Notes: a model not told the origin generated them from the letters alone. A stretch of DNA of 20,000 nt from an uncultured virus (IMG/VR IMGVR_UViG_3300024999_000092) (IMGVR_UViG_3300024999_000092); one strand, 5' to 3'. Counted from the stretch's first letter, positions 3,627 through 18,306 are shown. Program-made: numbers and translations.

Positions 3627-3760
3627 TGCATTTTCCTCCCTCTAACCGCACCCCGTACCCACCGGGCAACCACAGCATTTTTACTTGCCGATATACGCCC
3701 ATCCCGGTATCCGGTGCAGTATATTGTGTTTTTGGTTGGAGGCAGACAACTGCCTCCCCA

Positions 3761-6104: not shown

Positions 6105-6413
6105 TTAACTTGTTTGTGGTTCTGGTTTAAACCAATCACACGTTGTTCCTGTGCACTCAACCTTTCCTGGACACTTACTGTTTTTTAAGAGAAGACAAGT
6201 GCAAATTTCATCACGATCCAAGCAGTGCAGGCAACATCTTGGTTCGATAATCAAGTTGCAACCAATAACATCAAACCATATGCCTTTTTTAAATTTTAAG
6301 CATAGTTTATTTATGGCACTTAATGGATTTTTAGCTATTACAGATTCCCTATTCATCCTGTCTGGAAATAAATACACATTTACTATATATAATTTTTTCA
6401 ATATTAATCTCAC
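6105..6413 (-). CDS. Cys-rich hypothetical protein
   Basis: 102-aa ORF in the operon with a Cys-rich C-terminus (CCLHC...C.C...C...C...CDWF). Confidence 0.5.
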   Translation of the reverse strand: MRLILKKLYIVNVYLFPDRMNRESVIAKNPLSAINKLCLKFKKGIWFDVIGCNLIIEPRCCLHCLDRDEICTCLLLKNSKCPGKVECTGTTCDWFKPEPQTS

Positions 6414-6476
6414 CTCAAAATGGTATTACGTCCGGCTCACTCTCCACCGCCTCAAAACAATCCAAATTAGGACACA

Positions 6477-6755
6477 TCAGGCGGTAGTCTTGCGTTTCCC
6501 TCTCGACCAAAATCCCCGCAACCACTTCCATGTCGGTGCCGGGGACAGCAACTTCCACCATTTCACTTCCGCAGCGTTCACACATGGACATTTGAACGAC
6601 TCCCTTGCATATTCATCCGGCACACTCGCTTGCTCCAAGCAGTACGCCGACACTCTTTCAAGTGTTTCTGCGACTAATACTGCTTGTCCGTTGCGGATAC
6701 TCTGCGCCCATGATGCGGAGTGTTTTGCTAATTGTGCGTAGTCGTTTGTGTTCAT
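6477..6755 (-). CDS. Hypothetical protein
   Basis: 92-aa ORF with ATGA overlap to the upstream gene. Confidence 0.55.
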   Translation of the reverse strand: MNTNDYAQLAKHSASWAQSIRNGQAVLVAETLERVSAYCLEQASVPDEYARESFKCPCVNAAEVKWWKLLSPAPTWKWLRGFWSRGKRKTTA

Positions 6756-6958
6756 GCTTTTTTATTGGTGATTAGGGTTAATTCTTCTTGCAGAAAACAC
6801 CTTTCAAGTCCATCCCAAGTCGCTACCATATTGTCTAATTTAACGTCACATAACTGCTGAAAATGTCCGTCATAAGTACATATAACAGTACCTTTGATGT
6901 TTACTATATCCATATCAGGTTCATTAACAATAACCCGATCCCACTCTTTAAACTTCAT
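6752..6958 (-). CDS. Small SH3/KOW-like hypothetical protein
   Basis: Likely ATG at 6958 after GGAGG. MKFKEWDRVIV...GTVI...CDVKLD...FLQEELTLI pattern. Confidence 0.6.
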   Translation of the reverse strand: MKFKEWDRVIVNEPDMDIVNIKGTVICTYDGHFQQLCDVKLDNMVATWDGLERCFLQEELTLITNKKA

Positions 6959-6959
6959 C

Positions 6960-7142
6960 CTACTTGTCCTCCTTCGCCTCCTCAAAAGCATAGCAAGTTG
7001 TAGATTGTGCTGCTTTTATAGCATTAAAATTTACTCCGCTATCAGTACATTTCCAATAACCTTTTAATTGCAGACAAAACTTGCAATCATTACACGTTTT
7101 TTCAATTGGTATAGATACGCCCACTTTAATTCCCACCACCAA
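6960..7142 (-). CDS. Small Cys-rich protein
   Basis: CNDCKFC...WKC...TCYAF, in the operon. Confidence 0.55.
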   Translation of the reverse strand: MVVGIKVGVSIPIEKTCNDCKFCLQLKGYWKCTDSGVNFNAIKAAQSTTCYAFEEAKEDK

Positions 7143-13355: not shown

Positions 13356-13421
13356 ATTATATCATTTAGTCAATAAACAGTCAACAACGTTATTGATATT
13401 ATGTTTAAAATATGGTATTAT
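13356..13421. promoter_or_regulatory. Divergent sigma-A promoters
   Basis: Minus strand: TTGACT(13384)-17bp-TATAAT(13361) with TGn. Plus strand: TTGATA(13393)-17bp-TATTAT(13416) with TGn. AGTCAA repeated at 13368 and 13379. Confidence 0.65.
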
Positions 13422-13448
13422 TATTACATAAATATTGGAGGTGTTGGA

Positions 13449-14108
13449 GTGAAAGATCGCGCTTTAATAGATAGAATATCTAGCACAATGCTAGAGTTAG
13501 AATTGTCTAAAATACGCTTTGACAGTGAGCAAAATAGAATAAAGGAAGAGTTAACTAATTATCTAACCGACAACAAGGAACTCATCACTAGAGATGTAAT
13601 GTCATATTATTATTGGGAAACTAATCTTGCCGTATCCATACTTAAGGCATCATTGAATGACGAAAAAATGATGATAAATAAGTTTGTTCAAGGTTATTGT
13701 GTTGTAACCTCATGTCCTAACTGCGGTTCCGATGTTTTCTCATATCCAAGGTCAAGAGAAAAGAGAAGATATATGAAAGACGATGTATTATGTCCTGTCT
13801 GTAGCGATAGAAAGAAATGGATTAAGGAGAGAAAATCTAAAGAGGAATGGGAAGATTATAAAATATACCTAAAGAAATTAAAGGATATGCCCTATAAAGA
13901 ATATCTGCGCACGAATCATTGGTTAGATGTAAGGAGAAGGGCATTAAACAGGGCTAATAATAAGTGTCAACTATGTTACAATGAGAACAAACTACAGGTT
14001 CACCATAAGACATATGAGAGAAGAGGTCACGAGCATAATAGTGATGTTATAGTTTTATGTGAGAAATGCCATAAGAAATTCCATGATATTTTAGATAGTA
14101 AGGAGTAG
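13449..14108 (+). CDS. HNH endonuclease with extra Zn-ribbon and N-terminal helical domain
   Basis: CQLC...LQVHHKTY...VLCEKCHKKFH plus CPNC/CPVC. GTG at 13449 after GGAGGTG. Confidence 0.85.
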   Translation: MKDRALIDRISSTMLELELSKIRFDSEQNRIKEELTNYLTDNKELITRDVMSYYYWETNLAVSILKASLNDEKMMINKFVQGYCVVTSCPNCGSDVFSYPRSREKRRYMKDDVLCPVCSDRKKWIKERKSKEEWEDYKIYLKKLKDMPYKEYLRTNHWLDVRRRALNRANNKCQLCYNENKLQVHHKTYERRGHEHNSDVIVLCEKCHKKFHDILDSKE

Positions 14109-17398: not shown

Positions 17399-17458
17399 CC
17401 TGCAAACGGTATGAATCTACCGTAAACGGTTGTATTAACATTTACCGAGTGATATAAT
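17399..17458 (+). promoter_or_regulatory. Sigma-A promoter with paired operators (moron 1)
   Basis: TTGTAT(17430)-17bp-TATAAT(17453) with TGn. Operators CCTGCAAACGGT 17399 and ACCGTAAACGGT 17419. Confidence 0.7.
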
Positions 17459-17491
17459 TTAATGACTAATAGAGGACTATGGAGGGATAGA

Positions 17492-17977
17492 ATGGATACC
17501 AAGGATTTGATAGAAAAGTTATCCGAGAAAGTGCATGACGCATGGATGAAGGAAAAAGCGGCACAGGGTTTTCATGCACCAAACGATTGCCCTAATATGG
17601 GGAAATTAAGCACGGCAATGTGTAAAAAATGCCATACCGATATGTACCCCTACGAAGAATTGCCGGAAAATATAAAGGACTATGACCGCGTAACAGTTAA
17701 TGCTGTTTTACAGGCATTGGATGATTTGGGCATTAAGTTAAAGGAAAGCACCCAAAAAACAGGACTTAACTTCGGCCAGGCGTTAGAACAGGTGAAACAT
17801 GGTAAAGGTATGCGCTTACCTGCATGGCAATCTGACGTTGTTATTAGGGCGCAATATCCTGACGAAAACAGCAAAATGACCTCACCTTATTTATATGTCG
17901 AAAGTCGCTTTGGACGAGTGCCTTGGAAAGAAACGATGATCGAGTTATTTTCTGAACAATGGGAAATAGTTGACTAA
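17492..17977 (+). CDS. RyR-domain / Tad2 (DUF2829)-like fusion; putative anti-defence signal sponge
   Basis: N-half LSEKVHDAWMKEKAAQGF...HTDMYPYEELPENIKDYDR resembles a RyR repeat. C-half LNFGQALEQVKHGKGMRLPAW...SKMTSPYLYV...VPWKETMIELFSEQWEIVD resembles DUF2829. ATG 17492 after GGAGGG. Confidence 0.8.
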   Translation: MDTKDLIEKLSEKVHDAWMKEKAAQGFHAPNDCPNMGKLSTAMCKKCHTDMYPYEELPENIKDYDRVTVNAVLQALDDLGIKLKESTQKTGLNFGQALEQVKHGKGMRLPAWQSDVVIRAQYPDENSKMTSPYLYVESRFGRVPWKETMIELFSEQWEIVD

Positions 17978-17987
17978 CTCAAACACA

Positions 17988-18022
17988 CAAAACTCTCTCT
18001 AGTTGAGGGAGTTTTTATTTTT
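17988..18022 (+). terminator. Intrinsic terminator
   Basis: AAAACTCTCT-CTAGTTG-AGGGAGTTTT followed by a T-rich tail. Confidence 0.75.
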
Positions 18023-18027
18023 CATCT

Positions 18028-18087
18028 ACTGTATACAATATTCATCTACCTAATACGGTTGCAACATAACTAACCCGATGATATAAT
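18028..18087 (+). promoter_or_regulatory. Sigma-A promoter with paired operators (moron 2)
   Basis: TTGCAA(18059)-17bp-TATAAT(18082) with TGn. Operators ACTGTATACAAT 18028 and ACCTAATACGGT 18048. Confidence 0.7.
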
Positions 18088-18092
18088 AATTA

Positions 18093-18268
18093 CAGAATCG
18101 CTACGCCTCTGTCTCGCGTGATATGCGCACATGGCGGTTACTCCAACACCAACCTGCAAAGAAAGGAAGTGAATACCCTCCATGGACAAATAATTATTGA
18201 ATCTAGTAGTAGTGTGCTCAATAGAATATTAGCCGTTAGAATGGACGCATATAGCGTTCTTTTTTTTG
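18093..18268 (+). ncRNA. Promoter- and terminator-bounded transcript with no convincing ORF
   Basis: 5' stem AATCGCTA...TGGCGGTT. RBS-like AGAAAGGAAGTGA followed by ATG GAC AAA TAA. Terminator ACGC-ATATA-GCGT plus T run. Confidence 0.4.
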
Positions 18269-18271
18269 CGT

Positions 18272-18306
18272 AAAAATAAAAACCCGGCAACCATGACAGT
18301 CACCGG
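18272..18306 (-). terminator. Terminator of the lysis operon
   Basis: CCCGG...CCGGG stem followed by a U-rich run on the minus strand. Confidence 0.55.

Follow-up and report, generated by a model that had tools for sequence, protein, structure and literature searches.

Phage proteins that act on the ADP-ribose (ADPR)-derived signals of Thoeris defence have been described both in the ryanodine receptor (RyR) repeat family and among Tad2 proteins. A gene that joins the two domain types in one polypeptide lies in IMGVR_UViG_3300024999_000092, a stretch of 20,000 nt from an uncultured virus, referred to below in its whole length as the window. Among the RyR proteins, RyDEP of mycobacteriophage DyoEdafos is reported to be a glycosidase that cleaves 2'/3' cyclic ADPR (2'/3'cADPR), with H75, W78, H100 and D117 as ligand or catalytic residues, while six of eight other RyDEP homologues are reported to bind 2'/3'cADPR without cleavage and two to act as sponges in vivo (PMC13232231). 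RyR Tad, which is gp68 of Pectobacterium phage vB_PatP_CB1, is described as a dimeric sponge with a dissociation constant of 43 nM for 3'cADPR and with H129/W132, H154/K147 and K170/D171 as key residues; mutants at H129, W132, H154 or D171 reportedly bound 3'cADPR about 100-fold more weakly, and W132A lost anti-Thoeris activity (10.64898/2026.06.04.730250). This protein is, save for two residues, the RyDEP homologue H7 (Pectobacterium phage). Tad2 is reported as a tetrameric sponge for 3'/2'cADPR (10.1101/2023.05.01.538930), some Tad2 homologues as binders of cyclic dinucleotides (10.1101/2023.11.15.567273) and others as binders of histidine-linked ADPR (His-ADPR), cyclic UMP/cyclic CMP (cUMP/cCMP) or N7-cADPR (PMC12393519). 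Human Repeat12 (R12) is reported to have a pseudosymmetric cleft that accommodates dantrolene as well as adenine nucleotides and is lined by one Trp per repeat (PMC12627627).

A sequence-only reading of the window had proposed that one of its genes encodes an N-terminal RyR repeat fused to a C-terminal DUF2829 (Tad2-like) sponge. Profile searches placed both halves in these families above the respective cut-offs, and a fold match was obtained for each. We regard it as likely, from sequence, models and analogy with the described proteins, that the product is a two-module counter-defence protein of a Firmicutes-type siphophage that neutralises ADPR-derived Thoeris signals. The gene and the parts of its product are as follows.

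17492..17977, + strand: coding sequence of the 161-aa RyR-Tad2 fusion protein (P0001), stop included, with ATG at 17492 and TAA at 17975-17977
17498..17743, + strand: RyR domain, residues 3-84 (Pfam PF02026, E 1.6e-9, 38.3 bits vs gathering score 27.4)
17573..17635, + strand: zinc-like loop between the two RyR helices, H28/C33/C44/C47 then H48, noted from its conservation in relatives
17732..17767, + strand: flexible linker, residues 81-92, with a predicted local distance difference test (pLDDT) score of 67 for residues 81-90, ending in the conserved junction TQKTGLNFGQA
17768..17971, + strand: Tad2-like domain, residues 93-160, a 'type I' cassette (Pfam PF11195, E 1.2e-10, 42.2 bits vs cut-off 25, profile positions 2-73 of 73)

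The homologues P0002-P0006 have the same start and architecture as the protein that begins at 17492. A longer open reading frame (ORF) starting at 17462 was rejected, as it lacks a ribosome-binding site and all five fused relatives (5/5) begin at the MDT/MGT position.

All motifs quoted in the sequence-only reading are present in the translation. These are HDAW (residues 15-18), PYEELP (53-58), K.YDR (62-66) and the loop segment H28-x4-C33-x10-C44-x2-C47-H48 in the RyR half, and NFGQAL (93-98), W112, PYLY (132-135), VPW (143-145) and W.IV (157-160) in the Tad2 half. A PDB sequence search recovered a putative ryanodine receptor from Bacteroides thetaiotaomicron, together with a tandem chimera of this protein (6uhi 1.8e-13; 3nrt 5.4e-6), and matched Tad2 chains only weakly. 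An AlphaFold2 model, built on a 110-row alignment, had a mean pLDDT of 90.5 and consisted of two domains and a low-confidence linker. In this model, the RyR half is formed by two long helices (residues 3-24 and 59-78) and the Tad2 half by a helix (94-101) and strands (106-160) in a helix-then-antiparallel-sheet fold. Foldseek comparison with the PDB, in which template modelling (TM) scores were normalised to the target, matched the Tad2 half to SPO1 Tad2 (8sme_B, TM 0.81, root-mean-square deviation 1.9; range 0.80-0.81) and also to ModTad2, HgmTad2 and SptTad2, with 9eib, 8v3e, 8kbj and 8wjd among the further entries matched. The RyR half was matched to the B. thetaiotaomicron protein (3nrt_E, TM 0.65, root-mean-square deviation 3.2) and to Repeat12 chains of human RyR3.

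The residues important for ligand handling in the described phage RyR proteins have counterparts in the RyR half. H15, W18, H48 and D65 align with H129, W132, H154 and D171 of gp68 (pairwise alignment with a translation of the GenBank record), and their spacing equals that of H75, W78, H100 and D117 of RyDEP after insertion of an 8-residue loop, the latter correspondence being by spacing and not by alignment. Conservation was assessed in a 75-row RyR alignment of the six fusions and 69 of the other 99 RyR-half matches, with the short stand-alone forms taken in and the longer multi-domain matches left out. H15, H48 and D65 were kept in 75 of 75 rows and W18 in 74; among the loop residues, H28, C44 and C47 were invariant (75/75 each) and C33 was kept in 68 rows, with His in three. 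Because the rows were collected for their resemblance to the query, part of this conservation arises by construction. A small metal site is plausible from two features, the replacement of Cys by His at position 33 and a beta-bridge that links residues 28 and 47 in the model; the H/C-C-C loop fits a putative zinc-like site of this kind. The loop is not present in RyDEP, in homologues H1-H8 or in the B. thetaiotaomicron protein. For the homologues RyDEP and gp68, experiments have established what the sequence-only reading supposed, namely a role of the phage RyR domain in dealing with a nucleotide immune signal; the conserved ligand residues suggest, by analogy, that the same may hold for the window protein.

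A two-copy complex prediction run on residues 1-88 gave a symmetric RyR dimer with a score of 0.61 (runs 0.61, 0.45 and 0.61), compared with 0.00 for the best control; among solved homo-pairs, 20 of 30 attained the score mark applied, as did one of 23 single chains. The runs had at least 79 % of their contacts in common, and the partner pLDDT was at least 74. The predicted interface involves both long helices, including residues 16-18 and 63-65. The prediction may stem from memorised structures because similar dimers have been solved (3NRT, 6UAG), and it speaks for likeness, not for binding; the predicted picture matches the R12 cleft, with one Trp per repeat. The two domain assignments made in the sequence-only reading are confirmed by profile score and by fold.

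By sequence and model, the RyR half is a minimal single two-helix repeat like the putative ryanodine receptor of B. thetaiotaomicron (3NRT, 6UAG, 6UG4), which is its best match in both sequence and fold. That protein is likewise a minimal single RyR repeat of similar length and was crystallised as open and closed dimers. However, it is cellular, and its inter-helix region is 8 residues shorter and lacks the Cys/His loop; no function for it was found in the searches made. gp68 shares with the fusion protein the PF02026 domain, the aligned HxxW, His and Asp residues, the organisation as a two-domain phage protein and a dimer formed via the first and last helices (a prediction in the case of the fusion protein and a reported finding for gp68). 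The two differ in that identity is 30 % over 61 residues, and the RyR domain of gp68 is C-terminal, behind an inactive domain, with two extra helices before the HxxW motif, whereas in the fusion protein the repeat is minimal, N-terminal and equipped with a Cys/His loop, and its partner is of a proven sponge type. RyDEP belongs to the same Pfam family and has the same ligand-residue spacing, but is described as an enzyme of 137 aa that has one domain and four helices per protomer, catalysis being reported for RyDEP alone. The Tad2 half shares PF11195, the fold and the Trp pair with Tad2 no. 79 and SPO1 Tad2 (8SME/8SMF), which are stand-alone proteins of 80-90 aa. The closest parallel in organisation is the Acb4-Sequestin fusion, gp59 of Pseudomonas phage Ab09, in which two independent signal-sponge modules are reported in one polypeptide (10.64898/2026.06.04.730250). 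There, the reported targets are the cyclic-oligonucleotide-based antiphage signalling system (CBASS) and type I Thoeris, while both modules of the window protein come from Thoeris-aimed families.

The Tad2 half has about 20 % identity to SPO1 Tad2. W112 and W145 align with W25 and W73 of that protein, the Trp pair of the glyco-cyclic ADPR (gcADPR) pocket, and are kept in 41/41 and 39/41 rows, respectively; T148 and I150 occupy the positions of S76 and T78. Identity is far higher to Tad2 no. 79, a tested protein (Hadary et al. 2025, Table S2), with 55 of 79 residues identical (70 %). In plaque assays, no. 79 is listed as positive for type I Thoeris, type IV Thoeris and Escherichia albertii CBASS, and as negative for type II Thoeris, Yersinia CBASS and E. 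coli Pycsar, with Bacillus Pycsar not validated (PMC12393519, Table S2). The column assignment used for this table agrees with the text of the paper for rows 70 and 71. Among nos. 63-86 of Table S2, nos. 71 and 79 are the only full type IV positives (PMC12393519), and both share with the window protein the loop motif PDE(H/N)SKMT.PY (PDENSKMTSPY in the window protein; residues 123-133, nt 17858-17890; identified by eye). This motif is a possible candidate marker of N7-cADPR binding. The cassette form MRLPxW...VVIRAQYPDENSKMT.PYLYVESRFGRVPWKETMIELF is common. It occurs as a stand-alone protein in Bacillus, Enterococcus and Latilactobacillus phages, is also found in IMG/VR contigs and in prophages of Lachnospiraceae, Paenibacillus and Oscillospiraceae, and forms the second domain of tandem Tad2-Tad2 proteins of 148-176 aa (P0010, P0013; L014 5746-6276). 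An anti-CRISPR (AcrIIA7) reading of DUF2829 was rejected, Li et al. having reported failure to reproduce any Cas9 inhibition.

Both heads are most likely aimed at ADPR-derived Thoeris signals because the RyR ligand residues are kept and the Tad2 half is 70 % identical to no. 79. The Tad2 half would form a tetramer, as in Tad2, with W112 and W145 lining pockets that hold 3'cADPR and probably also N7-cADPR, as shown for close relatives. The RyR half would form a symmetric four-helix dimer with a cleft lined by H15, W18, H48 and D65 of both chains and braced by the zinc-like loop, and would most likely act as a sponge for 2'/3'cADPR, cleavage to ADPR being less likely. Fusion may thereby raise the number of binding sites per particle above the two pockets of a lone Tad2 tetramer and give a broader Thoeris cover (types I, IV and VI) from one self-contained gene. 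The two heads would probably widen or deepen Thoeris cover, rather than address two unrelated pathways, because the signals bound by RyR domains belong to the family bound by Tad2.

Several observations weigh against this reading. Two of the eight tested RyDEP homologues are reported to have bound nothing (PMC13232231). The RyR half is without about 60 N-terminal residues (alpha1-alpha2, including the mutated residue Q54) that are present in RyDEP and H1-H8, its HxxW motif beginning at residue 15, so that its pocket must be differently built. In the Tad2 half, Q113 and E151 stand at the polar-contact positions N26 and D79 of SPO1 Tad2 (N22 and D93 of HgmTad2). Active no. 79 likewise differs from SPO1 Tad2 at these positions, with S and E; within the 41 rows of the cassette type, position 113 is variable (Q in 13, K in 11, S in nine and N in four), and 36 rows have E at position 151. 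Finally, a consensus promoter scan, at its thresholds, calls nothing upstream of the gene.

The zinc-loop repeat could recognise a signal from outside Thoeris (for example cUMP/cCMP, a cyclic di- or trinucleotide, or a molecule yet to be discovered), and the fusion would then block Thoeris together with a second system. This is improbable, given that all four cADPR-type ligand residues are strictly kept and that each ligand so far reported for phage RyR domains is a cADPR isomer, even though the subfamily, with its minimal repeat and the Cys/His loop beside the pocket, differs in structure from the RyDEP forms that were tested. Human R12 is reported to bind ATP and ADP in the same cleft (PMC12627627), sponge families have repeatedly proved broader than initially thought (PMC12393519), and the plaque column of Table S2 has a 'y' for no. 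79 against E. albertii CBASS, an entry which leaves some room for a CBASS target. The sequence-only reading had one protein blocking two signalling defences; of this, the two modules stand, while the known RyR ligands, being Thoeris cADPR isomers and hence of the signal family of Tad2, speak against two unrelated pathways.

Two further explanations concern the activity of the RyR half. It could be an inverting glycosidase of the RyDEP type that opens the ribose-ribose bond of 2'/3'cADPR to give ADPR while the Tad2 half only sequesters, such that the signal would be both buffered and removed. The catalytic dyad of RyDEP, H75/D117, has counterparts in H15 and D65, found in 75 of 75 relatives; however, the other eight homologues, with the same residues, are reported not to cleave, catalysis being confined to RyDEP (PMC13232231), and the fusion protein is without the N-terminal RyDEP helices, which include Q54, one of the mutated residues. 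We consider such capture and destruction quite unlikely. Still harder to credit, and in our view very unlikely, is a RyR half that sequesters no immune signal and serves as a mere dimerisation or scaffolding arm, or as an ATP/ADP sensor, altering the valency or stability of Tad2. A confident symmetric dimer is indeed predicted, and the second domain of gp68 is reported to aid dimerisation and to have no activity of its own (10.64898/2026.06.04.730250). Against this, the ligand residues are invariant, and stand-alone forms of 88-110 aa make up the majority of relatives in the RyR subfamily, which indicates that the RyR domain has a function by itself.

The pairing of the two domains is rare. 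A search of 5.8 billion clusters gave 738 matches, and among the 120 listed, six (P0001-P0006) contained both domains, confirmed by a Pfam re-scan; these RyR-Tad2 fusions are 90 %-identity clusters and all are metagenomic. The RyR half alone gave 103 matches, mostly stand-alone proteins of 88-110 aa. An exhaustive HMMER search of 50 %-identity representatives returned 1129 matches at E <=0.001, and among the best 150 only P0002 spans both halves. In cultured phages, tblastn with the full-length fusion gave 32 records, none covering at least 80 % of the query, and the RyR half alone gave five records at E <=1 with a best identity of 33 %; the fusion was not found there. None of the best 80 of 125 IMG/VR relatives matched query residues before 62, and the three longest IMG/VR matches are stand-alone or tandem Tad2 proteins. 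Reference genomes yielded 31 loci, comprising 28 with the C-terminal part only, three with the RyR half only and none with both. Near the stand-alone RyR gene of a Fermentimonas metagenome-assembled genome (L108), inspection by eye, made without a family scan, revealed no Tad2-like ORF.

The six fusions were split at the shared junction TQKTGLNFGQA and the two halves were compared separately. Identities on either side of the junction were strongly mosaic:

P0001/P0003: N-half identity 95 %, C-half identity 27 %
P0001/P0002: N-half identity 65 %, C-half identity 91 %
P0002/P0006: N-half identity 93 %, C-half identity 27 %
P0003/P0005: N-half identity 74 %, C-half identity 89 %

These values indicate three RyR alleles, paired with no fewer than four types of Tad2 cassette. 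By this comparison of the halves, the RyR-Tad2 architecture is constant, and Tad2 modules replace one another at a fixed junction. Recombination of Tad2 cassettes may therefore be a means of retuning specificity.

The RyR subfamily has other partners. Besides the Tad2 fusions in six clusters (among the 120 matches listed of 738), a fusion to the Acb2/Tad1 hairpin was found in P0217 (28.6 bits vs cut-off 27), with a weak match in P0153. Further partners of the zinc-loop RyR domain, in proteins including P0190, P0195 and P0270, are crAss001_48, a dATP/dGTP pyrophosphohydrolase, Fib_succ_major and several domains without a Pfam match; the fusion partners of this subfamily are possibly further counter-defence modules. 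A different arrangement was observed in two IMG/VR proteins listed in a published homologue table (PMC12393519 supplementary file 2, Table S1, sheet homologs_Tad2, rows 3661-3662); in both, a type-I Tad2 domain houses a nested RyR-like segment that has no Cys loop. The insertion point is the loop where HgmTad2 bears its dinucleotide-binding insertion. This nesting is a second way of joining both modules.

The idea of a phage RyR domain that handles an immune signal is no longer new because two preprints published it in May-June 2026. Both modules are singly known; what is new is the RyR-Tad2 pairing, the minimal zinc-loop form of the RyR domain and the swapping of Tad2 cassettes. The pairing was not found in the literature searched; the text of 10.64898/2026.06.04.730250 names Tad2 separately, and published figures such as the tree of viral R12 proteins may show domain architectures. 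A literature search for any two of PF02026, PF11195, DUF2829 and ryanodine returned only the RyDEP preprint (PMC13232231), and no other relevant paper on RyDEP was found. The words 'fused', 'DUF2829' and 'zinc' are absent from the main texts of PMC13232231 and 10.64898/2026.06.04.730250. A bolder view, which we consider possible but doubtful, is that the zinc-loop RyR repeat is a separate structural solution, with one symmetric, metal-braced cleft across a homodimer and a specificity unlike that of the RyDEP forms. On this view, the RyR-Tad2 chimeras would form a modular 'pan-Thoeris' sponge, the Tad2 cassette being swapped at TQKTGLNFGQA to retune the signals bound, and the nested RyR-in-Tad2 proteins would be a second product of the same selection.

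Phage sponges have repeatedly served as tools for finding immune signals. As a natural chimera that joins two independent putative cADPR binders, the protein offers a ready test of whether the fusion of modules brings greater capacity or a wider reach over types I, IV and VI Thoeris, and it is an easy construct with which to capture ADPR-derived signals. The zinc-loop minimal repeat is the form nearest to a single repeat of animal ryanodine receptors, and its ligand preference therefore bears on whether R12 of the RyR channels senses cADPR-type molecules. Cassette swapping provides a concrete example of how counter-defence specificity evolves.

The sequence-only reading had described the gene as a stand-alone moron with its own expression signals. 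The signals located are as follows.

17430..17458, + strand: promoter-like element with a weak -35 TTGTAT (17430-17435, 3/6), a 17-nt spacer and an extended -10 TGATATAAT (17450-17458), read by eye
17481..17486, + strand: ribosome-binding site GGAGGG, 5 nt ahead of the ATG, read by eye
17989..18025, + strand: intrinsic terminator with a stem-loop at 17989-18015 (11 pairs, four G-C) followed by a T-run, tail TATTTTTCAT

The description holds for the ribosome-binding site and the terminator, and in part for the promoter, which was recognised by eye and not called by the scan. The fusion gene is the sole + strand gene between - strand neighbours, a position consistent with a stand-alone insert. 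One flank contains an FtsK/SpoIIIE-like gene, a replication-relaxation gene, two YopX genes, a helicase and a methylase; the other contains a lysis cassette made up of membrane proteins and an endolysin that carries Amidase_2 and SLH domains. The gene arrangement in the window is of siphophage type, typical of Firmicutes, and the G+C content is 39.6 %. Megablast of the whole 20-kb window against cultured phages gave no matches, and neither an Rfam match at gathering score nor an NCBIfam family was obtained. In L014, the ORF at 6290-7126 that follows the tandem Tad2 gene resembles, by eye, an amidase endolysin; the fusion gene of the window likewise lies next to a lysis cassette.

Downstream of the fusion gene, the scan called a promoter-like site at 18059-18087 (+ strand; TTGCAA-17-TATAAT with TG in front), which has the 9-mer TGATATAAT in common with the element upstream of the fusion gene. 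Together with a terminator-like hairpin at 18243-18259, it bounds a unit of about 150 nt (18059-18267, + strand). Inside this unit lies a 51-codon ORF with a GTG start (18118-18273); the unit has no credible Rfam match and its folding energy is ordinary (z -0.13). An HNH-endonuclease-like ORF at 13401-14108 (+ strand), matched in PHROG only, is situated within the - strand early/replication block and may be a homing-endonuclease-type insert.

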